Shown piece after piece: positions 4,626-16,027 of a stretch of 64,000 nt of DNA (positions within the stretch are counted from its first letter, which is position 1; each line of letters opens with the position of its first letter). A program made the translations under genes and the position numbers. This DNA is from a virus. The notes beneath the pieces were generated by a model that was given only the letters and a program-made list of their open reading frames with translations, made no database searches and had not been told where the DNA came from. Location of the stretch: IMG/VR virus record IMGVR_UViG_3300045988_010351, one strand, 5' to 3'.

Positions 4626-5672
4626 ATGGCTGTCAGCAAAGGTAAATCTTCTGTTACTTTAAGTGACATCCTAGAAAAGACAACAGAGGCAAATATTCTG
4701 TCATTTTATCTAGGAGTCACTGAAATTCCTTGTATTATACATAGTCCTCTTAGGAAAGATAACAAGCCATCATTTGGTCTGTACTCTCCTAATGGAAAGA
4801 GGATATATTTTGTGGACTTTGCAACCAAGGATAGGGGAGGTGTATTTGACCTCCTTTGTCAGATGTGGGGGTGTAACTACAGGGAAGTCCTAACAAGGAT
4901 AAGCAAGGACATACCAAAGCTCTGCTCTATAGGAACACCTAATGTTCATAAACATATTCCATGTGCTGTGAGAAGTACCATTGAATGCAGAAAGAGTACT
5001 GACTTACAGTGCAAAGTCAGAGATTGGACATCTTATGATGTTGAATATTGGAAATCCTATGGAATAAGTCTTGATTGGCTGAAGTATGCAGAAGTTTATC
5101 CCATATCACATAAGATTATCATAAAAGATGGTCATAGATATGTGTTTGGGGCTGACAAATATGCCTATGCTTATGTAGAACACAAGGAAGGTAAAGTTAC
5201 TCTAAAGATATACCAACCTTTTAATAAGAATGGTTATAAATGGAGTAACAAACATGATAACTCTGTAATTAGCTTATGGACTAAAGTACCTGAATATGGG
5301 GAACAGATTTGCATTTGTTCTTCACTGAAGGATGCTTTATGTCTATGGGCTAACACAGGTATTCCATCTCTTGCCATTCAAGGTGAGGGATATAGGATGA
5401 GTGATACTGCAATTAGTGAACTGAAAAGAAGATATAAACAAATCTTCATTTGCTTGGATAATGATGAGCCAGGATTGAAAGATGCTCAGAAGTTAGCTGA
5501 GGAAACAGGGTTTACTAATGTAGTATTACCACCCTTTAATGAAGGGAAAGATATTTCAGACTTGTATAAGGCTAAGGGCAAAGATGAGTTCCTTAGAATA
5601 ATCAAGCCTTTATTTATCTCTTCAAGACAAGAGGACAATGATTGGAATGATTTGCCCTTTCGCATAGATTAA
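4626..5672 (+). CDS. DNA primase, TOPRIM domain (DnaG-like)
   Basis: TOPRIM signature IFICLDNDEPG (DxD) followed by a conserved D (KDISDLY). Cys/His-rich N-terminal region (CIIHSPLRKDNKPSFGLY). Preceded by an A9 tract then GCATG. Confidence 0.65.
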   Translation: MAVSKGKSSVTLSDILEKTTEANILSFYLGVTEIPCIIHSPLRKDNKPSFGLYSPNGKRIYFVDFATKDRGGVFDLLCQMWGCNYREVLTRISKDIPKLCSIGTPNVHKHIPCAVRSTIECRKSTDLQCKVRDWTSYDVEYWKSYGISLDWLKYAEVYPISHKIIIKDGHRYVFGADKYAYAYVEHKEGKVTLKIYQPFNKNGYKWSNKHDNSVISLWTKVPEYGEQICICSSLKDALCLWANTGIPSLAIQGEGYRMSDTAISELKRRYKQIFICLDNDEPGLKDAQKLAEETGFTNVVLPPFNEGKDISDLYKAKGKDEFLRIIKPLFISSRQEDNDWNDLPFRID

Positions 5673-5712
5673 AGTTTCAATAAGTTCAATTTTATAAAAA
5701 AAAAGTGAAAAC

Positions 5713-6432
5713 ATGGAAGCAAGAAAAATTACAGTCGTACAGACTAAGAATCAGAAGAAAAGTGTTATTATGTCAGCAGCCACGACCCTTGCTGAGTTGA
5801 AGAGTGACTTGAGAGCCAATGGTATTGACTATGATGGTATGACCTTCTTTGAAGGTACATCAAAGGTTGAATTGAAGAATGATGCTTCAGTTCTACCACA
5901 TGATGTTCCTTACAAGGGAACTATCACCAATGAGTTGGTTTTCATGCTTACTAACACCAACAAGAAAATCAGAAGTGGTGCTGTTGCAATGAGTAGAACT
6001 GAGGCATACAGTGCTATCAAATCTATGGGTTTACAGGATGCCTGTGTAAAGAAGTTTGGCAAGAACTTCACTATGTGTAAGACTGCTGACCTTATTGCAT
6101 TGGTACAGAGCAATAGTGCTGCAAAGCCTGCTCCTGCTGCTCCTAAAGCTGAGGCTAAGAAGGAGGAAACACCTGTAAACACTCCTGTAGCACCTGCAAG
6201 TAATGGAGGTGAGTGTGTTGATGCTGTAGCAAGGACTGCTATCAGCAAGTTGGTGGAAATCCTTGAGGAAAATGGCACAATTAAGGATTATGAGAAAGAG
6301 GAAGTGATTGATATTCTTGGAGGTAAGGTTGCAGTAAGTGATGCACCTTCTGAGGAGTATAAACCTAAGTCAGCTTCTCCTTACTCTGATGATGAGATTG
6401 ATGATATGTTCGCAGGAATGGGTGTCAATTAA
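5713..6432 (+). CDS. hypothetical protein with Ala/Pro-rich linker; N-terminal region with ubiquitin-like (beta-grasp) sequence pattern (speculative)
   Basis: The N-terminal roughly 85 aa (KITVVQTK...SVIMS...TLAELKSDLRANGIDYDGMTFFEGTSKVELKNDASVL...ELVFMLT) alternates in a way that resembles the ubiquitin beta-grasp pattern. No C-terminal Gly-Gly. PAPAAPKAEAKKEETP linker. Followed by terminator 6449-6489. Confidence 0.45.
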   Translation: MEARKITVVQTKNQKKSVIMSAATTLAELKSDLRANGIDYDGMTFFEGTSKVELKNDASVLPHDVPYKGTITNELVFMLTNTNKKIRSGAVAMSRTEAYSAIKSMGLQDACVKKFGKNFTMCKTADLIALVQSNSAAKPAPAAPKAEAKKEETPVNTPVAPASNGGECVDAVARTAISKLVEILEENGTIKDYEKEEVIDILGGKVAVSDAPSEEYKPKSASPYSDDEIDDMFAGMGVN

Positions 6433-6448
6433 CAAAGGTAAATAACAG

Positions 6449-6489
6449 TAGGTAAGGAGGTTAGAAATATCCCCCTTACCTATTTTTTT
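6449..6489 (+). terminator. intrinsic terminator
   Basis: Stem TAGGTAAGG(AGG) 6449-6460 pairs with (CCC)CCTTACCTA 6471-6482; 9 perfect bp plus a partial extension. Followed by a T7 run at 6483-6489. Confidence 0.6.
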
Positions 6490-6497
6490 ACAGTAGT

Positions 6498-7799
6498 ATG
6501 AGTAAAGAAGTAATTAAATTAATTGAGGAGAAGATAGAGGAATTATATAACTCCTTAATGGACAAGCCACTCCGAGTATTAGGCATATTCAATGACTTCT
6601 TTGGAGAAGATAAAGTTGATATGCAAGGATATTGGAGTTTGGACAAGTTCAAATCTTGGATGAATATAGAGCCTTTATCTACCTATATTCCTAGTGGTGG
6701 TATTGTAAGCATGAATAGTAATGACTGGAGCATGTATAAAGCATATGCTATTACTGATTTACCTGAAAACCAGGTAGAAAAGGTTGTTAATGTGCTTACA
6801 AATACTACGGTAAAGGAGAAAATTGGTTATATCAAGTTCAATGGTATATTCATCCTTGTACATTTTCCTCATGTAAGGGTAACTAATGAGCATGACAGAT
6901 TTGTGGATATTAACCATCTGTGGGCTAAGATGAGAGTAATGTATAATGGCACATTGAATGGAGGATTCACACTTAACAGGTCAGAATATACACTGCTTCA
7001 CTTCAGAAGTCGTTATATGCACAGTCATATTAGTAGTATCCCTACAAATGATTTCACCCAATTCAAAAATCCTTGTACAGGCAGTGGTCCTATTAATGGT
7101 ACTATTAGTGTCCTCAATAGGGATTATGATGAGGATATGTGGAATATGTTCTGCCTTGAACTGAGTAAGTATGTAACTGTAGAATCTGTTGCTGGAACAC
7201 CCTATCATTACTTGGAGAGGTTAGGTACCGATGGTATGGAAGCAGGTATGGATAGATTCACTACATGCCTGTCTCCTAATCACTATAGAGGTGCCATTAC
7301 TCATGATAAATTCAAGGAGTTTGTGAGGTACTTTATTAACTCTAAGAAACTCAAATTTAACTATGTCAATGGCTCTTATTCTATTGGAATGTCATTTATT
7401 GAATTTATTGTACTCATTAGTAATGAGTTCATTAAATGGTATAATGACCAGTTCAATAAAGAGGAACTAACTGCTAAGTTTGCAGATTTGAAGAGACAGG
7501 ATATTTTGAGAGAGTGTATCATAGACAGTGGAAAGATTTACTATGATAGAGGCAGGAATAATGTAAACAACTATGCTCAGTATATAGGCAAGAAGGTCTG
7601 TGTATTCAAAGGGAGAGAGGTAACTGTAGATATTACAGATGTTGCAGAAGTGAGGAATGAGAATAAGAGTATAATTCTTGATATTCAGACTGCATTATAC
7701 ATATTAACAACAATACTCAAAGTATTAAATTACAGATATGGAAGAAACAAAGCAATCCACGAAGGCAATCAGCTTGGTACAGAAGTCAGGTACTTATAA
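6498..7799 (+). CDS. hypothetical protein (433 aa)
   Basis: ORF only. Its 3' end overlaps the JAB gene by 62 nt in another frame. Confidence 0.5.
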   Translation: MSKEVIKLIEEKIEELYNSLMDKPLRVLGIFNDFFGEDKVDMQGYWSLDKFKSWMNIEPLSTYIPSGGIVSMNSNDWSMYKAYAITDLPENQVEKVVNVLTNTTVKEKIGYIKFNGIFILVHFPHVRVTNEHDRFVDINHLWAKMRVMYNGTLNGGFTLNRSEYTLLHFRSRYMHSHISSIPTNDFTQFKNPCTGSGPINGTISVLNRDYDEDMWNMFCLELSKYVTVESVAGTPYHYLERLGTDGMEAGMDRFTTCLSPNHYRGAITHDKFKEFVRYFINSKKLKFNYVNGSYSIGMSFIEFIVLISNEFIKWYNDQFNKEELTAKFADLKRQDILRECIIDSGKIYYDRGRNNVNNYAQYIGKKVCVFKGREVTVDITDVAEVRNENKSIILDIQTALYILTTILKVLNYRYGRNKAIHEGNQLGTEVRYL

Positions 7800-8946
7800 T
7801 TATAAGCTGATTATCCCAGCAGAAGTGGAAAGAAAGATAAGGTTTGCCTGTCAGAAGGTATGGAGTACTGAATGGTCAGGTACACTATTCTTTACACATG
7901 AAGGTTCATTTGAAAACAATGACCTTGTAATAAGATGTGTGGATATTTACATCATGGATATTGGAACTCAAGCCTATACGGAGTTTGATATGAATCCTGA
8001 TGTGATAGCCTATATGTGTGAAAATCCTGAGCTACTTGATTGTCAGATGGGTCTTATACATTCCCATAACAATATGAGTACTTTCTTTAGTGGAACAGAC
8101 ACTGCTACTCTAAAGGAAGAAGGCAGGGACAGAAATAATTTTGTATCTCTCATTGTGAATAATGCAGGTTCCTATACTGCTGCAATCACAAGGAGAATCA
8201 AGTCAAAGCAGGTCAAAGAGTCTGTATCTTATGAGTTCTTTGGTGATGGTGAAAAGCATGATACTAAGGAATATGTAAGTGATGCAGATGAGATTGAATG
8301 GTTCTATCTTAAAATAGAGAAAGAAGACGAGAATTATTCCTTTCCAGACATGGCAGCAAGGCTTGAGGAAATCAAGCAAGCTAAAGCAGAGAAGGTCAAG
8401 AAAGCTCAGACACCTGTATATCAAGGTGGTTACAAGCCTGTTATTGCTAACTCTTATGGTACAAAGGCAGATCCAGCAAATCTTGTCAAGAAGGAGACTA
8501 AAAAGCCTAAGGTAGTTCAGACATCTCTCTTTGATGATGTAGATGATTTGCCATTTGAAATGGGATATGACATACCTTATGGTCAGGTAACATTTGATAA
8601 AGTTACTTTGAAATCTCTTGTACTTCAATTGATTACAGGCAGCATTATTATCTCTAATGATAGTAAGATTGATATTACCAAATGGGCTAGGTCAATGCCT
8701 GCATTATATGAAAAGAGATTTGGCAAAGGTAAAGAAGGCATGAAAAATTTCAAAATATGGGCAGATACCTATGCAGAATATCTGACATGGTATGTGACAG
8801 ATGAGAAATTAGAAGAGCTTGGCTTTGATGAAACAGAAATTTGTGCTATTTGTGCCCATGATATGATAGAGGAGCTTACAAAACTTCCTGAAAATGATTA
8901 TATCAAAGGGTATATTGATGCACTTCAAAAGTATTTAATATTATGA
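7738..8946 (+). CDS. JAB/MPN+ (JAMM) family metalloprotease with about 250 aa C-terminal extension
   Basis: Canonical JAMM motif HSHNNMSTFFSGTD (H-x-H-x7-S-x2-D) at 8059-8100. Upstream conserved Glu in PAEVERK and an EWSGTLFF element like the JAB N-terminal E..G.L.G. Its stop overlaps the start of the E1-like gene (ATGA). Confidence 0.7.
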   Translation: MEETKQSTKAISLVQKSGTYNYKLIIPAEVERKIRFACQKVWSTEWSGTLFFTHEGSFENNDLVIRCVDIYIMDIGTQAYTEFDMNPDVIAYMCENPELLDCQMGLIHSHNNMSTFFSGTDTATLKEEGRDRNNFVSLIVNNAGSYTAAITRRIKSKQVKESVSYEFFGDGEKHDTKEYVSDADEIEWFYLKIEKEDENYSFPDMAARLEEIKQAKAEKVKKAQTPVYQGGYKPVIANSYGTKADPANLVKKETKKPKVVQTSLFDDVDDLPFEMGYDIPYGQVTFDKVTLKSLVLQLITGSIIISNDSKIDITKWARSMPALYEKRFGKGKEGMKNFKIWADTYAEYLTWYVTDEKLEELGFDETEICAICAHDMIEELTKLPENDYIKGYIDALQKYLIL

Positions 8947-10076
8947 ATGAAGGAACAACCCCACAAGGAGCAGCTGAAGCTTATAATTCCCTTATGGAAA
9001 GTACCAATGAGGATAATATTCGTGAATATAATGAGGTGGGATATGCCGATCTTAGTACACTCAATACTGTCCTTAATAGTATTAGAATGGGCCTCATTAC
9101 CTCTCTTAACATTATTAGTTTGAATGGTGTACCTAATACCTATAAAGTTGCATATTGTAGCACTAGTAATACAACAGGTAGAATCTTTATCAATGAACAT
9201 TTCAAAAGTTTAGTTGAAGAAACTTGGGCTATAAGGACGGGTAACTCTGTAGAAGATGGTAGTGACAGCATTGGCTTTGAACTTTCAGAGGAGGAGCAAG
9301 CTATCCTTGACCAAGCTGTAGAAGATGCACATCAAGAAATACCTACAAACTCTGCAACTTTGCTTGTGGATGAAGCTACAAGTAGGTTTAGTTCTGCCAT
9401 TTGGTATGAGAACATTCAGAAGAAGACTATTATTTTGGCAGGTGTAGGTGGTATTGGTAGCTATGTAGGCTTCTTATTGGCAAGAATGAAGCCAGCTTCT
9501 ATGTTTATTTATGATAATGACATAGTGGAAACTGTCAATATGTCAGGTCAGTTATATGGTCAGTCTGATTTAGGTAGACTTAAGGTATCTGCACTGGCTG
9601 AGATGATTAGGAACTATGCTGGCTATAGTAGTATCTTTGCAATAAGTGAAAGATTCACTGATGAATCTGAGGCATCAGACATTATGATTTGTGGCTTTGA
9701 TAACATGGCAGCAAGAAAACTCTTCTTTAATAAGTGGTTGAGTCATGTTCAATCCAAACCAGAGGAGGAGAGAAAGAATTGCTTGTTTATTGATGGTAGA
9801 TTAGCAGCAGAAGAATTTCAGGTATTGTGCATCAAGGGAGATGATGAGTACAACATCAATAGGTACAATAATGAGTTCCTATTCTCTGATGCAGAAGCTG
9901 ATGAAACTATTTGCTCCTATAAACAAACTACCTTCTGTGCAAATATGATTGCATCCTATATGGTCAATCTGTTTGTAAACTTCTGTGCTAATCAGTGTGA
10001 GCCTCTCATTGACAGAGACCTGCCATTCCTTACCACATATAATGCGGAAACAATGTATCTCAAAACTGAAGTATAA
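8943..10076 (+). CDS. E1-like adenylyltransferase (ThiF/MoeB/HesA fold) with about 150 aa N-terminal extension
   Basis: Rossmann motif ILAGVGGIGSYVGFLLA (GxGxxG, 9436-9465). This is followed by IYDNDIVETVNMSGQLY (the D.D.V..SN..RQ element of E1/MoeB), then GRLKVSALAEMI, then DIMICGFDNMAARKLFFNKW, then IDGRLAAEEFQVLCI. All are in MoeB/E1 order and spacing. The N-terminal extension contains a Cys in KVAYCSTSN. Confidence 0.7.
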   Translation: MNEGTTPQGAAEAYNSLMESTNEDNIREYNEVGYADLSTLNTVLNSIRMGLITSLNIISLNGVPNTYKVAYCSTSNTTGRIFINEHFKSLVEETWAIRTGNSVEDGSDSIGFELSEEEQAILDQAVEDAHQEIPTNSATLLVDEATSRFSSAIWYENIQKKTIILAGVGGIGSYVGFLLARMKPASMFIYDNDIVETVNMSGQLYGQSDLGRLKVSALAEMIRNYAGYSSIFAISERFTDESEASDIMICGFDNMAARKLFFNKWLSHVQSKPEEERKNCLFIDGRLAAEEFQVLCIKGDDEYNINRYNNEFLFSDAEADETICSYKQTTFCANMIASYMVNLFVNFCANQCEPLIDRDLPFLTTYNAETMYLKTEV

Positions 10077-10840
10077 TGGAATTTAACCCAAGATTTGCAC
10101 GTAATGTAAGGAGTGTTTTCATTAGCAGTGATTCTGCTGGCCCAAGCCAGCTTGAAATGAATCTATCTCTTGATAGTAACAATGTATTTAGGAGAAGTCT
10201 TATCATTGAAGTAAATGATGATGAGGTAGAGATTCCTGTGATTGCAAGAGGATACTTGGAGAGCTTAGTGTTAGAGAGGATACATTATCCATCATCTATA
10301 GGAACTAAGAGGATAATACTGCCATTGTATGATAATGCACCAAGTCAGGAGAGAAGAACCTTTGATAGTATTATAACTCAATTATTTACTAATGTAAGAT
10401 ATAGTAAAAGATTGCAGAAGATAACTACCAGCAAAGGTGAAGTGTATTATGGAGGCAAAGGTATTATCTTTGATGAAAGCTATGCTCCATTGCTGTTATG
10501 TACACTAACTGCAAGAAAGGTACATACAGAAGAAGGTGACGATAATATGGTCTATTATAGACCTGTATGCCATGTTAGTCCTAAAGTATTCTTAGAGTCT
10601 GACAAGTTGATTAACAAAGGTATTATTAAGAAACTTATTCCTTTCTATACAAGTAGAGAAGTAAGTCTTCCTGATTACAACTTTGGTGCCAACCCAGAGA
10701 GTAAAAAGGTAAAAGTTGTAGTAGATAATTTTGATAAGTTCTTTATAGAACCTATTAAACCTACTCCATCTGCCACTACTAATGATGCACTGAATGAATG
10801 CCTTATTGACAATATGGATGACATAATGATGTTGATATGA
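10076..10840 (+). CDS. hypothetical protein (254 aa)
   Basis: ORF, start overlaps the E1-like stop. Contains an internal YYGG. No assignable motif. Confidence 0.45.
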   Translation: MEFNPRFARNVRSVFISSDSAGPSQLEMNLSLDSNNVFRRSLIIEVNDDEVEIPVIARGYLESLVLERIHYPSSIGTKRIILPLYDNAPSQERRTFDSIITQLFTNVRYSKRLQKITTSKGEVYYGGKGIIFDESYAPLLLCTLTARKVHTEEGDDNMVYYRPVCHVSPKVFLESDKLINKGIIKKLIPFYTSREVSLPDYNFGANPESKKVKVVVDNFDKFFIEPIKPTPSATTNDALNECLIDNMDDIMMLI

Positions 10841-11514
10841 CATTAGATGAATACTTTGGAGATTGGATGAAAGTAATTGATAGGGCAGAGCTAAACAATG
10901 TAATGACTAAGGTTGGACAAGAATATAGGAGGAAGCCTCTATGTCCTGCCCAACCTGATGTATTCAGAGCATTTGAGCTTTGTCCTCTCAAGGACTTAAA
11001 AGTAGTTATGTTAGGTCAAGACCCCTATCCACAAAAGGGAGTTGCAACTGGCATACTATTTGGAAATAGGGCTGATGTGCAAGAGAAAAATTTATCTCCA
11101 TCTCTACAAATTGTTAAAGAGGCAGCTATAAATTTTGAAATTCCAAAAAATAGTTGTATCTTTGACCCCACTTTAGAAAGTTGGGCTAAACAGGGAATAT
11201 TAATGTTAAACTCTGCACTCACAGTAGAAATGAATAAAGCTGGTTCTCATGTAATGTTATGGAGGCCGTTTATAGCTGCTTTATTAAAACACTTATCAAA
11301 ATATGAAACTGGCATTATTTATGTTCTATTTGGGAGGCAGGCTCAGACATTCAAGCCCTACATTAACAAACAATTCAATGACATTCTTGAAATTGAGCAT
11401 CCAGCATACTATGCAAGACTTAATAAGAGGATGCCATCTGAACTGTTTGCTACTATAAGTAATATGTGTAAAGATAAATATGGGGTACCAATTAAATGGT
11501 ACCAAGAGTATTAA
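10837..11514 (+). CDS. ung: uracil-DNA glycosylase, family 1 (UNG)
   Basis: VVMLGQDPYPQKG matches the UNG water-activating loop GQDPYH. SPSLQIVKEAA matches the UNG PPSLxNIxKEL region. C-terminal EHPAYYA matches the region of the HPSPLS motif. Confidence 0.7.
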   Translation: MTLDEYFGDWMKVIDRAELNNVMTKVGQEYRRKPLCPAQPDVFRAFELCPLKDLKVVMLGQDPYPQKGVATGILFGNRADVQEKNLSPSLQIVKEAAINFEIPKNSCIFDPTLESWAKQGILMLNSALTVEMNKAGSHVMLWRPFIAALLKHLSKYETGIIYVLFGRQAQTFKPYINKQFNDILEIEHPAYYARLNKRMPSELFATISNMCKDKYGVPIKWYQEY

Positions 11515-11538
11515 ACAATAAAAACAAAAACAAAAGAC

Positions 11539-12105
11539 ATGGAAAAATTTTATTTGAAAAACGGAAAAGAAGTACAGATTGGAGACACTATTGTCAAGGT
11601 ATTTAAGATTAAACACCCTCTGTTTGGCAAAGGTCCTGTGATAGAAAGTACACTGGTTACCGAGGCAGCTTTGCCTAAACTGATTAGAGCAGGTATTATT
11701 ACTGTCTCACCTGGTTCTGACTTTGATATAGATAAAGTGCTTAAACCTACTGAAATACCTATGGATCTTAATTACTATATTGAAAAGTTGGCAGAAAGGC
11801 TTGGCTGGAAGGTAGAAAAGGTATATAATTATCTCAATACCATTGACAGTGTTTATCCTGCTGCTGCATTCTCTATGGTACTTAGAGAAGTAGCCATTGA
11901 ATTGGACAAAAAGTATAAGGACCATATTGAGAAGAGTCCTGAAATATATGTAATTTCTATGTTTGATGGAAGGATTACCAAGGCTAATAAAGCACACATC
12001 AAGAACTATAGGAATTTTGCAGCATTTAGGACTGTTGAAGATGCCAAGACTGCTTGCAGCATTGTAAGAGACATACTCAAGGAATTGTTTAAGAATAATG
12101 GTTAA
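11539..12105 (+). CDS. hypothetical protein (188 aa)
   Basis: ORF only. Confidence 0.45.
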   Translation: MEKFYLKNGKEVQIGDTIVKVFKIKHPLFGKGPVIESTLVTEAALPKLIRAGIITVSPGSDFDIDKVLKPTEIPMDLNYYIEKLAERLGWKVEKVYNYLNTIDSVYPAAAFSMVLREVAIELDKKYKDHIEKSPEIYVISMFDGRITKANKAHIKNYRNFAAFRTVEDAKTACSIVRDILKELFKNNG

Positions 12106-12613
12106 TAAGAAAATTAGAAATGCTACTATCTGTAAAGGTAGTAGCATTACTTTTAAGTCTCAACTAGAAAAAACTATTTATAATACTTTAGTAGAACAAG
12201 GATTTATTCCTGAGTATGAGCCTAAGAGGATTGTATTATTGAATTTTGAGCCTTGTACTGTCCCTTTTTATGATAAGGAGACTGACACTCAATATAAGAA
12301 GAGGATTGATGAAGGTGGAAAACCTCCAAAACTTCTTAATCTTAAAAGTAACACAATGCTTCCAATTACATATACTCCAGATTTTTACATCCGACATAAT
12401 AATGTAGATGTTTGGATAGAGGCTAAAGGAATGGAAAATGATGTGTACTATCTAAAGAAAAAGCTGTTTAGGAGGTATTTAGAAGAACAATCTAAGCAAG
12501 GTGTAAAAAGTATTTTCTTTGAGATTTATAGTAAGAAACAATTGTTACAAGCTATAGAAATATTCAAACAATATGCAGAAGAATGTAATACAAGAACTGA
12601 TAAAGGAAGCTAA
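12098..12613 (+). CDS. T7 endonuclease I-like Holliday-junction resolvase (PD-(D/E)xK)
   Basis: YTPDFYIRHNNVDVWIEAKGMENDVYYLKKKLF parallels the T7 endonuclease I catalytic segment YTPDF...VETKG...DDRKKHLL. Confidence 0.55.
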   Translation: MVNKKIRNATICKGSSITFKSQLEKTIYNTLVEQGFIPEYEPKRIVLLNFEPCTVPFYDKETDTQYKKRIDEGGKPPKLLNLKSNTMLPITYTPDFYIRHNNVDVWIEAKGMENDVYYLKKKLFRRYLEEQSKQGVKSIFFEIYSKKQLLQAIEIFKQYAEECNTRTDKGS

Positions 12614-12770
12614 TAAAAGTCCTACACTTGAGTATAGTGATAATATTTTAATTTTCAAGGATAATCTCAAAGATACTATAAAGGCAGTTAAGAGAAGGCT
12701 TGGTATCTTGCAAACTTTGGAAATGGAGATAGACTATGAATTAACTATAAGTCATGTAGAAGATGAATAG
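12573..12770 (+). CDS. small hypothetical protein (65 aa), overlapping neighbours
   Basis: ORF overlaps the end of the resolvase gene and the start of the nuclease gene. Uncertain. Confidence 0.2.
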   Translation: MQKNVIQELIKEANKSPTLEYSDNILIFKDNLKDTIKAVKRRLGILQTLEMEIDYELTISHVEDE

Positions 12771-13812
12771 AAAAAGCTTAAAGGATATATCTTGGGATGT
12801 ATCTGAAGAAACATATAGGGCAGACCCAGCACTAAGTTATTCAACTCTTGCAAGATATGAGAGAGAAGGATTCAATAACTTGGATAAATTATTTGACAGG
12901 ATAGAAACACCCTCTCTTACTTTTGGTAGTGCTGTAGACAGTATTATCACAGGTGGTCAAAAAGAGTTTGATGAAAGATTTATGGTTGCTGAATTTCCTT
13001 CTACTCCAGACTCTATTACAAAGATAGTAAAATCTTTGTTCAGTCAGTATGGAGATTCTTATAGGAGTCTTATTACAATTCCTGATGATGCAATCATTAA
13101 GGAGACTGAATGTCAGAGTTATCAAATGAACTGGAAGCCTGAGACAAGGGCTAAGGTTATCAAGGAGAAAGGTGCTGACTATTATAACCTATTATTCATA
13201 GCAGGCAGTAGGACTATACTTGATACTCAGACCTATCAAGATGTGTGCAATGCAGTAAGAGCATTGAAAGAAAGCAAATCCACTCAGTTCTACTTTGCAG
13301 AGGATAACCCATTTGAACCAGATATTGAAAGATTATATCAGCTGAAGTTCAAAGGAGAGTTTCGTGGTATAACCTACAGAAATATGGCTGACTTAATTAT
13401 AGTCAATCATAAAGAGAAGTGGGTAAAGCCAGTAGATTTGAAAACAAGTTCTCATACAGAGTGGGATTTCTATAAATCCCTTGTAGATTGGAGATATGAT
13501 ATTCAAGCCAGACTGTATTGGGCTATTATAAGGCAGAATATGGATAAGGATGAGTATTTCAAAGACTTCAAGCTGCTTGACTATGATTTTATTGTGGTCA
13601 ATAAGAGGACTTTAACCCCTCTTGTATGGTATTGCCCCTTTACAAGAGCACAAGGTACATTGAAGTTTGGAAAGAATGACCAAATAGAAATGAGAAGTCC
13701 TTTTGTAATAGGAGAAGAACTTAACTCTTATCTCACTTCAAGACCTAAAGTGCCTATGGGAATTTCAGATACAGGAGTAAATGATTTGAGAGAATGGCTA
13801 AATACTTTATGA
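12763..13812 (+). CDS. PD-(D/E)xK nuclease of the RecB/Cas4/YqaJ-like family (putative recombination exonuclease)
   Basis: GITYRNMADLIIVNHKEKWVKPVDLKTSS...DIQARLYWAI carries the D...(D/E)xK...QxxxY motif set of RecB-family nucleases. Confidence 0.55.
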   Translation: MNRKSLKDISWDVSEETYRADPALSYSTLARYEREGFNNLDKLFDRIETPSLTFGSAVDSIITGGQKEFDERFMVAEFPSTPDSITKIVKSLFSQYGDSYRSLITIPDDAIIKETECQSYQMNWKPETRAKVIKEKGADYYNLLFIAGSRTILDTQTYQDVCNAVRALKESKSTQFYFAEDNPFEPDIERLYQLKFKGEFRGITYRNMADLIIVNHKEKWVKPVDLKTSSHTEWDFYKSLVDWRYDIQARLYWAIIRQNMDKDEYFKDFKLLDYDFIVVNKRTLTPLVWYCPFTRAQGTLKFGKNDQIEMRSPFVIGEELNSYLTSRPKVPMGISDTGVNDLREWLNTL

Positions 13813-13813
13813 T

Positions 13814-16027
13814 ATGCAAGTAATAAAAAGAGACAGAAGCAAAGAAGAATTTGACATCAGTAAGATTAACAGGGCTGTAAAGAAAGCCTTTGAGTCTTGT
13901 AATAAGAAGATGCCTCAATATCTTGGGGATATGATTTATGCCCTATTTAGTACCTTGGAAGGAGATACAATAGGTATTGAAGAAATCCAAAATAAAGTTG
14001 AGGATATACTTATGAATGAGAAGCACTTTGATGTAGCAAAGGCTTATATTATCTATAGAAATAAGCATGAGGAGTCTAGGTTCATTAGAGAAAGGATTGA
14101 TTATATGTCTAACTATGCAGATTCTGATGATAATGCTGCTAGTTCTTCAGAGACTGACCCTAATGCTAATGTAACTCAGAAGAATGTTGCCAATCTTGAT
14201 GGAGAAGTTTATAAGACAAAGAATAGAATTATTCAGAGACAGAGGATGAAGGATGAACTTAATATTCTTTATCCAGAGGTAGCAAAGCAGTATGAAGTAG
14301 ATGTTGAGAATCATATAATCTATCCTCATGATGAAGCTAGTGTACCTACTCTAAAGTTCTATTGTCAAGCAGATACTCTTTATCCACTTATGACAGAAGG
14401 TGTAGGTAATATTGATGGTGTAACACCAGGCCCTCCTAATGATTTACAATCATTTAGTGGACAGATAACTAATCTCACCTTCTTGCTTTCTTCTCAATGT
14501 AAAGGTGCAGTAGCCTTTGGAGAATACTTCATTGCTCTAAACTATTACATCATTGCAGAGTTTGGAGATAAGTGGTATGAGAATCTTGATTGTGTTGTAA
14601 CAAATTCTCATTGTAAGGTTCAAAGGACAGTCAGAGATTTCATAGAGAAAGCTTTCAAACAGTTTATCTATGGTATTAATCAACCAGCAGGAAACAGGAG
14701 CTACCAAAGCCCATTTACAAATGTATCTTATTATGACCATACATACTTTAGTTCATTGTTTGGAGAGTTTTACTACCCTGATGGAACTAAGCCTGAATGG
14801 GCTGCAATTAATGTTCTTCAGAAGATGTTTATGAAGTTCTTCAATAAACTTAGAACTAAGCAGATTTTAACCTTCCCTGTTGAAACATTAGCAATGGTAC
14901 ATGATGGCAAAGATATTATAGATAAGGAATATAAGGACTTCTGTGCAGAAATGTATGCAGAAGGACACTCATTCTTTACCTATATTTCAGATAGTGCTGA
15001 TAGTCTTGCATCATGTTGTAGATTGAGAAATGAGTTTACAGAGAATACATTTAATCCTACATCAGGTCTTACTGGTGTTATGACTGGTAGCTGTCATGTT
15101 ATCACTCTTAATATCAATAGGATTGTGCAAGATTGGTTCAAAGGAGAGTGCATAGATGGATTCAGTACTAGGTTTATTGGGAGTTCTACAGATTCTATAG
15201 TCGGAATCAAGACTATGAATAGAAGAATAGATTATACTGGCTTTGAAGAGTATCTTACAAATATCCTTGAAAGAGTCTACAAGTATCATATTGCTTATAA
15301 GACTATGCTCTATGAGCAAGAAGAGAAAGGTATGTTTGCAGCTTGTAATGGTGGCTATATACACATGAACAAGTTGTATAGTACCATTGGTATTAATGGC
15401 TTGAATGAGGCAGCTAAGTTCTTAGGTATGACTGTTAGTAACAATAAGGAGTATATTGAGTTCTTGCAGTTGGTTCTTGGTACTATTAAGGAAGCAAATA
15501 AAAAGCACTCTATCCATGACAAGAAGAGACCTTTCTTGTTTAATTCTGAGGTAGTTCCTGCTGAATCTCTTGGTGGTAAGAATTATAGATGGGATAAAAA
15601 GGATGGTTATTGGGTTCCTGAAGATGAAAATCTTTATAACTCATATTTCTTTGATGCCCATGATGATACTTCAGTACTAGATAAGATGATTCTGCATGGA
15701 AGGCAGACAGCACAATATTGTGATGGAGGCTCAGCCTGTCATATTAATCTTGTAGACCATCTTAGTAAGGAGCAATACCTCAAGTTGATAGACTTTGCTG
15801 TAGCTAATGGAACCAACTACTTCACATTTAATATTCCTAATAGCAAGTGTGATGATTGTGGTTACATTACTAAGCATCCTATTACTGAATGCCCAAAGTG
15901 TCATAGTAAGAATATCACCCAATACACAAGAGTGATTGGTTATCTTAGACCTATTAAGGCTTTTGGCAAAGATAGACAAATAGAGGCAATTAAAAGAGTT
16001 TATAGTAAAGATGTTGAAGTATGTTGA
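13814..16027 (+). CDS. nrdD: anaerobic ribonucleoside-triphosphate reductase, class III (NrdD) with N-terminal ATP-cone
   Basis: N-terminal ATP-cone (MQVIKRDRSKEEFDISKINRAVKKAFE). C-terminal Zn ribbon CDDCGY...CPKCHS followed by the glycyl-radical region TRVIGYLRPIKAFGKDRQIEAIKRV. Length 737 aa. Confidence 0.85.
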   Translation: MQVIKRDRSKEEFDISKINRAVKKAFESCNKKMPQYLGDMIYALFSTLEGDTIGIEEIQNKVEDILMNEKHFDVAKAYIIYRNKHEESRFIRERIDYMSNYADSDDNAASSSETDPNANVTQKNVANLDGEVYKTKNRIIQRQRMKDELNILYPEVAKQYEVDVENHIIYPHDEASVPTLKFYCQADTLYPLMTEGVGNIDGVTPGPPNDLQSFSGQITNLTFLLSSQCKGAVAFGEYFIALNYYIIAEFGDKWYENLDCVVTNSHCKVQRTVRDFIEKAFKQFIYGINQPAGNRSYQSPFTNVSYYDHTYFSSLFGEFYYPDGTKPEWAAINVLQKMFMKFFNKLRTKQILTFPVETLAMVHDGKDIIDKEYKDFCAEMYAEGHSFFTYISDSADSLASCCRLRNEFTENTFNPTSGLTGVMTGSCHVITLNINRIVQDWFKGECIDGFSTRFIGSSTDSIVGIKTMNRRIDYTGFEEYLTNILERVYKYHIAYKTMLYEQEEKGMFAACNGGYIHMNKLYSTIGINGLNEAAKFLGMTVSNNKEYIEFLQLVLGTIKEANKKHSIHDKKRPFLFNSEVVPAESLGGKNYRWDKKDGYWVPEDENLYNSYFFDAHDDTSVLDKMILHGRQTAQYCDGGSACHINLVDHLSKEQYLKLIDFAVANGTNYFTFNIPNSKCDDCGYITKHPITECPKCHSKNITQYTRVIGYLRPIKAFGKDRQIEAIKRVYSKDVEVC

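Follow-up and report, generated by a model that had tools for sequence, protein, structure and literature searches.

The adjoining JAB and E1-like genes of the window (the whole stretch of 64,000 nucleotides analysed here, from a gut crAss-like phage, IMG/VR record IMGVR_UViG_3300045988_010351) appear to belong to a ubiquitination-like cascade encoded by the phage, of which they would form the downstream half and whose gene order is that of BilABCD, a reading to which we attach a probability of about 0.55. Both open reading frames, 7738..8946 and 8943..10076, were recovered as described in the initial annotation, including their ATGA overlap and all motifs quoted there. They had been presented as an isolated pair with no obvious small ubiquitin-like protein (Ubl) beside it. 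Taken literally, the statement on the Ubl was correct; a domain of ubiquitin fold is nevertheless located two genes upstream, at the N-terminus of ORF 5713-6432. The pair itself is not isolated: genes for a Ubl fusion and a probable E2-like protein lie directly upstream and co-vary with it. They correspond to ORFs 5713-6432 and 6498-7799, both of which had been rightly suggested as partners.

The product of 7738..8946 (plus strand, 402 aa) is a JAMM/MPN+ metalloprotease, judging from its JAMM motif and family profile, in agreement with the initial assignment. Behind its JAB domain (residues ~30-165) come a Lys/Glu-rich linker and a helical C-terminal region that is conserved (~280-402). The JAMM constellation E82, H108-S109-H110 and S118-x-x-D121 was invariant in ~86 distinct homologues, with identities down to 24%, and the family profile matched CSN5 (0.004), archaeal JAMM1 (0.006) and Rpn11-like chains. 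The match to Pfam Prok-JAB PF14464 (E 3.3e-4, 20.9 bits, below the cutoff of 25) was weak. A 99%-identical protein is named '26S proteasome regulatory subunit [Crassvirales sp.]' in one source, and Gp77 of crAss001 is annotated as 'metalloprotease domain containing protein'.

The second gene of the pair (8943..10076, plus strand, 377 aa) encodes an E1-like member of the ThiF-MoeB adenylyltransferase superfamily, as first proposed; its adenylation fold was recognized by Pfam ThiF PF00899 (E 1.2e-15, 57.7 bits for a cutoff of 28.1, residues 155-263) and by profile matches to PDB chains of MccB, UBA5, UBA7/UBA1, ThiF, MoeB, Cap2 and BubCD. An hhalign comparison with MoeB gave a probability of 96%. 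The conserved core (residues ~140-377, ~235 aa) is devoid of inserted domains and displays the motifs G167xG169xxG172, Y-D191-x-D193, N199, Q203, K214, D253-N-M-x-x-R258, D284-G-R286 and Cys324. Among ~83 distinct sequences, the adenylation constellation (G167, G169, G172, D191, D193, K214, D253-N254 and R258) was invariant or nearly so. Cys324, downstream of the DGR strand, was invariant as well (81/82 aligned sequences); motif order suggests that it belongs to the crossover loop, a region beyond the DNxxxR motif at which alignments to solved E1s end. A catalytic Cys in or near that loop is required in thioester-forming E1s, though not throughout the ThiF family. The N-terminal ~100 residues are hypervariable, with 53-73% gaps over residues 21-100, and this region is absent from the FpV4 and Xanthomonas homologues. 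A minimal E2-like module, which the initial annotation had placed in this extension, was consequently rejected, its Cys72 being kept in three of 84 sequences. Public records label this protein 'thiamine biosynthesis protein'.

ORF 5713..6432 (plus strand) was identified by fold prediction and conservation as a putative pro-Ubl fusion protein of 239 aa. According to the predicted model, its N-terminus is a beta-grasp ubiquitin-like domain (residues ~3-82), prolonged by a flexible low-pLDDT tail ending at Ser88-Gly89 (Gly89 codon at 5977-5979). The tail motif is K-x-[KR]-S-G, with Ser-Gly instead of Gly-Gly; Ser88-Gly89 was invariant in 85/85 sequences and the Gly is internal to the ORF. An invariant Gly that closes a disordered tail immediately behind a beta-grasp domain is what characterizes an activatable Ubl. 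It is followed by a three-helix domain (95-135), a disordered linker, helices 167-206 and an acidic conserved C-terminal motif, S-x-x-E-I-D-D-M-F.

The sole real intergenic gap of the cassette lies directly 3' of the Ubl gene and contains an intrinsic-terminator-like hairpin (6447..6491, plus strand; stem TAGGTAAGGAGG / CCCCCTTACCTA, then T7), which a consensus scan did not pick up. Its folding energy was -20.3 kcal/mol (z -4.05), and none of 200 shuffles was as stable. Hairpins with a U-run at the same position and another stem sequence were encountered in crAss001, DAC15, cr126_1 and FpV4 (z -5.3 to -5.8); the equivalent in bajarodcaudo virus 1 was weaker (z -3.0, 2/200 shuffles as stable). 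Six phages in all thus display a terminator-like hairpin after the Ubl gene, from which we propose that more Ubl than enzymes is produced.

The following gene (6498..7799, plus strand) encodes a protein of 433 aa which is probably E2-like, with a predicted UBC/RWD fold. A helical part (residues 1-113) leads into a core (~103-225) composed of a helix, a four-strand beta-meander, a long loop and two helices, and a C-terminal alpha/beta domain covers 269-412. The long loop carries the invariant motifs Y173-x-H175-S176-H177 and C193-x-G195-x-G197-P198. The H175-S-H177 triplet stands in place of the HPN motif that precedes the catalytic Cys of E2 enzymes (its first His is lost in locus L092). The loop spans 171-198 and connects the meander to helix 199-208; the invariant C193 sits within it.

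A Ubl, a JAB protease and an E1 without E2 make up the arrangement of CysO/Mec+ (PMC1779556). In a sulfur carrier of this or of the ThiS/MoaD-ThiF/MoeB type, the Ubl, exposed by the JAB and adenylated by the E1, would become a thiocarboxylate sulfur donor for nucleotide, tRNA or cofactor modification; a thiocarboxylate pathway had been among the initial hypotheses. Systems of the ThiS/MoaD-ThiF/MoeB type resemble the cassette in that a beta-grasp protein is partnered by a minimal E1 core like that of ThiF, to which CysO/Mec+ adds a JAB partner; ThiF models were the best NCBIfam matches of the E1 (2.3e-18), and the thiamine label of public records points the same way. We nevertheless regard a sulfur carrier as very improbable. 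The ThiF score of 66.6 bits is far below the equivalog cutoff of 159. Matches to two models of the PRTRC (ParB-related, ThiF-related) plasmid cassette, PRTRC_ThiF (5e-8, 32.6 bits for a cutoff of 144.75) and PRTRC_A (0.057, 13 bits for a cutoff of 101.8), were likewise weak, and no ParB neighbour was found in the module. The E1 contains no rhodanese domain, and neither the module nor the crAss001 replication arm includes genes for a cysteine desulfurase, a PP-loop thiolase or a thiazole/molybdopterin synthase. The tail is Ser-Gly rather than Gly-Gly, and such pathways offer no place to the conserved 433-aa protein, with its invariant Cys and probable E2-like fold.

The enzyme genes of the cassette are translationally coupled. 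The E2-like and JAB genes overlap by 62 nt, the JAB and E1 genes at an ATGA (8943-8946 junction), the E1 gene and the next one (10076..10840, plus strand) by 1 nt, and the latter and the UDG gene by 4 nt. This next gene encodes a conserved accessory protein of 254 aa: it was present 3' of the E1 in 81/86 loci, divergent L091 included, and was not detected in FpV4 (HMM) or L092. No match was obtained in Pfam, PHROG, NCBIfam or PADLOC, and the alignment displayed a K-G-x-V-Y-x-G-G-x-G-x-I-x-D motif with no conserved Cys/His set. The protein is a candidate adaptor or substrate.

The order Ubl, 433-aa protein, JAB and E1, with or without the 254-aa protein, was kept in 81 of 86 loci. Besides crAss001-like phages, FpV4 and environmental contigs carry the cassette; all four genes (Ubl, E2-like, JAB and E1) have homologues in Flavobacterium phage FpV4, and L091, L092 and an environmental contig of 91 kb also contain them together. 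In the ~100-kb crAss-like phage genomes it occupies the replication module, with primase on one side and UDG on the other.

Tight coupling of the 254-aa protein and UDG genes to the E1 would suit a scheme modelled on CBASS Cap2-Cap3, in which not the beta-grasp domain but another protein, for example the 254-aa protein, UDG or a host protein, would be activated at its C-terminus and then conjugated and deconjugated by the E1, E2-like and JAB proteins, the 239-aa protein being an uncleaved Ubl-domain adaptor or a DNA-binding factor. Type II CBASS, with Cap2 (E2-E1) and Cap3 (JAB), likewise combines an E1 adenylation domain with a JAB protease, and Cap2 chains were among the PDB matches. In PADLOC the E1 was matched solely by Cap2-type E1-E2 models, of which the E1 half alone aligned (model ~330-460; protein ~155-250). 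Moreover, the Ser-Gly of the Ubl is internal, with no free Gly-Gly, and the Ubl gene, set apart by the hairpin from the genes of the enzymes, could belong to the upstream transcription unit. This scheme is nonetheless unlikely, even if it is the least so of the alternatives weighed here. No lineage has the three enzyme genes without the Ubl gene, FpV4 and L092 included, in which the gene of the 254-aa protein went undetected, and the disordered tail of the Ubl closes with the invariant Gly. Neither the 254-aa protein nor UDG ends in a conserved Gly/Ala tail. Furthermore, the cassette has a dedicated beta-grasp Ubl and lacks the E2-E1 fusion of type II CBASS, and neither CD-NTase nor effector was found in its neighbourhood by Pfam search or in gene annotations.

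BilABCD (bacterial ISG15-like; Type I and Type II, CEHH/6C) is ordered Ubl-E2-DUB-E1, and its JAB trims BilA and exposes its Gly (10.1101/2023.09.26.559546). Provided that the 433-aa protein is correctly assigned as E2-like, the cassette comprises the same four activities in identical order. Both have a single beta-grasp Ubl, the E2 (in the cassette a probable one) is diverged and combines a conserved Cys with a nearby His, and just as the JAB removes the residues beyond the reactive Gly97 of Type II BilA, the cassette Ubl has residues past Gly89 (10.1101/2023.09.26.559546). The differences are considerable. Bil is host-encoded, located in defence islands and anti-phage, whereas the cassette is carried in the replication module of a lytic-type phage. 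Its E1 consists of a variable N-terminus and a minimal ThiF-like core of ~235 aa, in contrast to the multidomain BilD with its inserted CYS domain; its E2-like protein of 433 aa has H-S-H upstream of the Cys, the Bil order being C-E-H-H. In addition, the cassette Ubl bears a 150-aa folded C-terminal extension and there is an extra conserved gene, that of the 254-aa protein. The Ubl, E2-like and JAB proteins gave no match to PADLOC or NCBIfam models and no detectable similarity to Bil, although these libraries may contain no Bil models.

Bub (bacterial ubiquitination-like, 6E/DUF6527) also places the Ubl inside a larger pre-protein, BubAB, which is cleaved by a JAB domain that releases it (PMC11601596). 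The E1 profile matched BubCD (5e-5), and the Ser-His pair of the E2-like protein is a possible nucleophile. Bub operates without catalytic cysteines, through Tyr/Ser oxyesters, whereas Cys324 of the E1 and Cys193 of the E2-like protein are both invariant here. The cassette also lacks the BubE/DUF6527 serine protease, its JAB is not fused to the E1, and the extension that its Ubl bears is not an E2. Phage Ubl domains with a conserved Gly and a C-terminal domain are known from the TAPI (Ubl)-TAPK (JAB+NlpC/P60) module of Lambda/T1, where the adjoining JAB peptidase is predicted to release the Ubl (PMC1779556). That module serves tail assembly among structural genes and has no E1 or E2, in contrast to the cassette.

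We suggest the following course for the cascade. ORF 5713-6432 would be made as a pro-Ubl composed of the beta-grasp domain, the tail to Ser88-Gly89 and the 150-aa extension, as fold prediction and conservation indicate. By analogy with BilC/BilA and with BubCD and the BubAB pre-protein, the JAMM protease would cut behind Gly89 and free the Ubl C-terminus. The E1 would then adenylate Gly89 with ATP and probably load the Ubl onto Cys324, both substrate and thioester being inferred. The E2-like protein would take it over, with either Cys193 or the Ser176-His177 pair as acceptor, the former being our first choice, and pass it to lysines of phage or host targets; the JAB may undo the conjugates as well. 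The location between primase and UDG points to action during genome replication, with replisome control or counter-defence as candidate roles. The Ser-Gly tail counts against this course, and so do the sub-cutoff Pfam score of the JAB domain and the lack of PADLOC or NCBIfam matches to Bil, Bub or Cap for the Ubl, E2-like and JAB proteins. The 239-aa protein might also carry its Ubl domain without ever being cleaved, and neither a target nor an E3 was identified. That the cassette is a complete and autonomous cascade, with pro-Ubl, highly diverged E2, JAB maturase/deconjugase and minimal E1 tagging host or phage proteins during replication, is a more tentative proposal, for which the odds fall slightly short of even.

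Of the three initial hypotheses, a phage Ubl-conjugation system remained the best fit. Another of them, counter-defence, would have the JAB strip host Bil- or CBASS-type conjugates off phage proteins, or the Ubl, E1 and E2-like proteins titrate or misdirect host machinery as decoys, with no dedicated targets. Every bacterial Ubl pathway characterised so far (type II CBASS, Bil and probably Bub) acts against phages, with a phage tail protein as the target of Bil; deconjugating enzymes are common among viruses, and the hypervariable E1 N-terminus could mirror an arms race. A lone protease would suffice for deconjugation, yet all four activities are strictly conserved together, their catalytic residues intact. 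None of the cassette proteins closely resembles host components of Bil or Cap in sequence, and their genes are located with those for replication and not with early anti-defence genes. We hold this as the main role to be improbable, a little more so than the Cap2-Cap3-like scheme; it concerns biological function and is compatible with the chemistry proposed for the cascade.

To our knowledge, the Ubl-E2-JAB-E1 kit has so far been described solely as bacterial anti-phage defence. If the conjugation reading is true, the cassette would be the first Ubl-conjugation pathway used by, and not against, a bacterial virus, and its Ubl and E2 would represent families without detectable sequence relatives among known systems. 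Such a pathway would be carried by crAss001-like phages, which in the human gut are some of the most abundant viruses, and by distant Flavobacterium and environmental phages.

BLAST and HMM searches showed that four genes travel together: ORF 5713-6432 (239 aa), ORF 6498-7799 (433 aa), the JAB gene (ORF 7738-8946) and the E1 gene (ORF 8943-10076), to which Steigviridae add a fifth, ORF 10076-10840 (254 aa). Gene order was identical in 81 of the 86 loci fetched. Flavobacterium phage FpV4 encoded homologues of all four without a change in order (gp53, gp52, gp51, gp50), and the order was also kept on an environmental contig of 91 kb (Ubl 214 aa, then 393 aa, 372 aa and ThiF 245 aa) and on two divergent contigs, L091 and L092, which were found by scanning a genome collection with the JAB alignment; MAG host labels of loci L087-L092 are unreliable. 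The 433-aa gene was detected by tblastn in 45 deposited phages, including isolates on B. intestinalis, B. thetaiotaomicron and B. cellulosilyticus. The matches examined belonged to crAss001-like phages or uncultured crAss-type records; the one exception was Dulem virus 41, where the match was weak and partial.

The source of the window was itself a crAss-like phage, with bajarodcaudo virus 1 as nearest record (80 % nucleotide identity) and a clear relationship to Bacteroides phage crAss001 (Steigviridae, Kehishuvirus). Along window 1-64000, both GC and AT skew changed sign near 36 kb, consistent with two gene arms whose transcription is either divergent or convergent. The 64-kb window held no tRNA genes; crAss001 has many elsewhere in its genome. 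A sigma-70 promoter scan, which carries no information on promoters of Bacteroides or phages, gave chance-level matches only.

The two reading frames of the initial annotation (402 and 377 aa) were present exactly as described, joined by an ATGA overlap, and both enzyme claims held. The E1 product exceeded the family threshold of Pfam ThiF (1.2e-15) and displayed GxGxxG, YDxD, Lys214, D253-N-M-x-x-R258 and D284-G-R286 as invariant motifs among ~83 distinct homologues. ThiF, MoeB and Cap2 models of NCBIfam and PADLOC also matched, all far under their equivalog cutoffs, and relatives in the PDB were MccB, UBA5, UBA7/UBA1, ThiF, MoeB, Cap2 and BubCD. Judged from sequence, the assignment as an E1 is solid. 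Cys324 was likewise invariant and followed the DGR strand in motif order. In ThiF and MoeB, the crossover-loop cysteine is located after the DGR strand. The crossover-loop position of Cys324 is a putative one, because alignments to PDB entries and to MoeB (hhalign) ended at DNxxxR and did not reach this loop. Support for the JAB protein was weaker by HMM, with a Prok-JAB score of 20.9 bits that lies below the cutoff of 25, but its motif was convincing: Glu82, His108-Ser-His110 and Ser118-x-x-Asp121 were invariant down to 24 % identity, and the family profile retrieved CSN5, archaeal JAMM1 and Rpn11-like chains.

The bare pairing of JAB and E1 is already visible in annotation, since public records of crAss001 name Gp77 a 'metalloprotease domain containing protein' and Gp76 a 'thiamine biosynthesis protein ThiF'; 'E1 enzyme family protein' and '26S proteasome regulatory subunit' occur elsewhere. 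In the literature, which was covered incompletely, no paper was found that interprets the pairing or links crAss-like phages with ThiF, ubiquitin or gp76-79, and a prior description elsewhere is possible.

An E2-like module had been proposed in the N-terminal region of the E1 protein. This proposal was rejected, as residues 21-100 were hypervariable and rich in indels (53-73 % gaps among 84 homologues), the cysteine at position 72 occurred in only three of the 84 sequences, and the E1 proteins of FpV4 and the Xanthomonas phage lacked the region. In 20-residue blocks of the N-terminal ~100 residues, identity was 9-26 % and gaps reached 73 %. Indels and substitutions clustered in the corresponding DNA (window 8943-9250) also where E1 cores were 80-90 % identical; a short acidic amphipathic helix (E-E-Q-A-I-L-D-Q-A) directly before the core was retained.

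Also contrary to the initial annotation, which saw no obvious small Ubl next to the pair, a predicted Ubl domain heads the 239-aa ORF, in one cassette with the E2-like, JAB and E1 genes. In alignments of six and then 18 homologues, the N-terminal domain ended at an invariant K-x-[KR]-S-G (Ser88-Gly89); both residues were kept in 85 of 85 distinct sequences, and the very distant homologue on L092 ended this domain with '...LFLQPLDVKSG'. An AF2 model built from 18 diverse sequences displayed the beta-grasp order of elements over residues 4-80 (block pLDDT 72-88), a low-confidence tail at 83-91 that holds the Ser-Gly and a confident three-helix domain at 95-135; listed with the model were FAT10 (8.5), ISG15 and MoaD2 (7.8) and SUMO (7.5). 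Pfam Ubl models matched no member of this family, and searches of Pfam, PHROGs, NCBIfam and PADLOC with single proteins and family members gave no match for either the Ubl or the 433-aa family. The model points to a Ubl made as a precursor, whose C-terminal extension measures 150 aa. Within the extension, the three-helix domain carried the signature K-N-[FY]-T...T-x-x-L-x-x-L and was followed by residues 136-239 (window 6117-6432). Its end was a conserved acidic S-x-x-E-I-D-D-M-F motif, which resembles the C-terminal tail by which bacterial SSB recruits proteins. The post-Ubl fragment, if cleaved free, might serve as a separate factor associated with the replisome.

The 433-aa family (1,474 clusters at 50 % identity) was an orphan by sequence. 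A PDB profile search gave only a chance-level match to YbbR, hhalign against UBE2D2 was not significant and Foldseek of the model against the PDB found no significant match. Invariant residues were N130, Y173, H175, S176, H177, C193, G195, E229, S230, G233 and P235. In the AF2 model (pLDDT 90.9, pTM 0.82), segment ~103-225 was composed of a helix, a four-strand meander, a long loop holding H-S-H and Cys193, and two helices; this predicted topology is that of UBC/RWD domains, with the invariant cysteine where E2s carry their catalytic one. We therefore consider the protein a diverged E2 with a probability of roughly 65-70 %, a rating that takes account of the negative Foldseek and UBE2D2 results. 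The homologue on L092 had lost the first histidine and kept S-H, Cys and GxG. Since it retains S-H and a Ser-His pair is in use in Bub E2s (PMC11601596), Ser176-His177 may be an alternative nucleophile to Cys193. If the assignment is true, the whole family is possibly an unrecognised branch of E2 enzymes.

Cassette junctions were tightly coupled: -62 nt between the E2-like and JAB genes, -4 nt between JAB and E1, -1 nt between E1 and the 254-aa gene and -4 nt between the latter and a uracil-DNA glycosylase (UDG) gene. The first was an out-of-frame overlap of the E2-like gene end and the JAB gene start (window 7738-7799), whose 62-nt length was kept in crAss001 (Gp78/Gp77), cr126_1 and bajarodcaudo virus 1, while it was longer in FpV4 (~125 nt). 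Only the boundary between the Ubl and E2-like genes was non-overlapping. There, directly 3' of the Ubl gene, a strong hairpin followed by a U-run, resembling an intrinsic terminator, was found in six of six phages (window 6447-6491 and comparison loci L001:3006-3066, L002:2468-2540, L003:2522-2592, L004:2563-2625 and L005:2553-2606). Stem sequences differed, so that structure rather than sequence is conserved; z-scores were -4.0 to -5.8 in five phages and weaker (-3.0) in bajarodcaudo virus 1. The built-in terminator scan did not flag hairpin 6447-6491. The conserved hairpin suggests that more Ubl than enzyme is produced, or that the upstream transcription unit ends there.

The UDG gene adjoined the cassette in all lineages examined (window 10837-11514; L003:884-1633; L091:9897-10592; L092:3538-4275), following it in crAss-like phages and L091 but preceding it in FpV4 and L092. 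This linkage, which survives rearrangement, may be functional or a mere consequence of a shared replication module. The 254-aa protein displayed no conserved residues of catalytic appearance and is a candidate adaptor or substrate; FpV4 gp49 was considered as its homologue and dropped, as HMMs did not detect it and the alignment was unconvincing. L091 (JBMNLZ010000002.1) is a 640-kb contig labelled as a Bacilli bacterium MAG, where the five-gene cassette plus UDG, near one end, and the adjoining 1201-aa lysin-like gene (Big_2 + Amidase_2) make up locus 5126-10592 and 10579-14181; its Ubl ORF had an aberrant N-terminus with a Cys-rich repeated 'CFNPCFNGS' stretch. This contig may stem from a prophage or a very large phage, or be a product of chimeric assembly. 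Jumbo phage PhiXhv-15 of Xanthomonas (L006, 2256-5630) encoded a 227-aa E1 homologue (27 % identity) that kept the putative crossover-loop cysteine. Its upstream 892-aa protein matched none of the Ubl, E2-like and JAB HMMs, which ruled out a fusion of the 433-aa and JAB proteins; this phage carries the same E1 clade in a different gene context.

In Type II Bil, a JAB enzyme trims residues beyond the reactive glycine of the Ubl, and in Type I Bub a JAB domain frees the Ubl from the BubAB pre-protein (10.1101/2023.09.26.559546; PMC11601596, respectively). From predicted folds, motifs, residue conservation and co-inheritance we infer, by analogy, chemical steps leading to conjugates: JAB would cut after Gly89, E1 would adenylate this glycine and probably form a thioester on Cys324, and the E2-like protein would accept the Ubl on Cys193 and pass it to lysines of targets; JAB may deconjugate too. 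A Cap2/Cap3-like system working on the C-terminus of another protein is possible but disfavoured by the invariant glycine right after the beta-grasp domain and by co-occurrence of the Ubl gene with the enzymes in all lineages. A sulfur-carrier role is disfavoured as well, given the Ser-Gly tail, the E2-like partner and a module and crAss001 replication arm devoid of rhodanese, desulfurase, thiolase and cofactor genes. A pure counter-defence deconjugase does not explain the strict conservation of all four activities, although counter-defence is a possible biological role of the full conjugation cascade.

Type I and II BilABCD loci display the same order of Ubl, E2, JAB and E1 (10.1101/2023.09.26.559546). 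By analogy the cassette would work like Bil, but by the tests run it does not appear to be a member. Three of its four proteins had no sequence match among PADLOC or NCBIfam models, its E1 is a minimal core while that of Bil is multidomain, and its E2 active-site motif differs. Moreover, a long, folded extension follows its Ubl at the C-terminus, it contains an extra gene, and it is phage-encoded within a replication module beside UDG. Databases list one product as 'Thiamine biosynthesis protein ThiF' and four as 'hypothetical proteins', names that probably mislead or carry little information.

Since the cassette occurs in cultured phage-host pairs (crAss001 with B. intestinalis, DAC15/17 with B. 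thetaiotaomicron, Kehishuvirus and Kolpuevirus with B. cellulosilyticus), assays of cleavage, adenylation and conjugation are feasible now, as is proteomics of infected cells. To our knowledge, the prokaryotic Ubl-conjugation systems that have been characterised all serve hosts as weapons against phages: type II CBASS, Bil and, probably, Bub. A phage-borne system would reverse this picture and raises the questions of what the phage tags, and whether the tag serves replisome control, host remodelling or jamming of Ubl-based host immunity.
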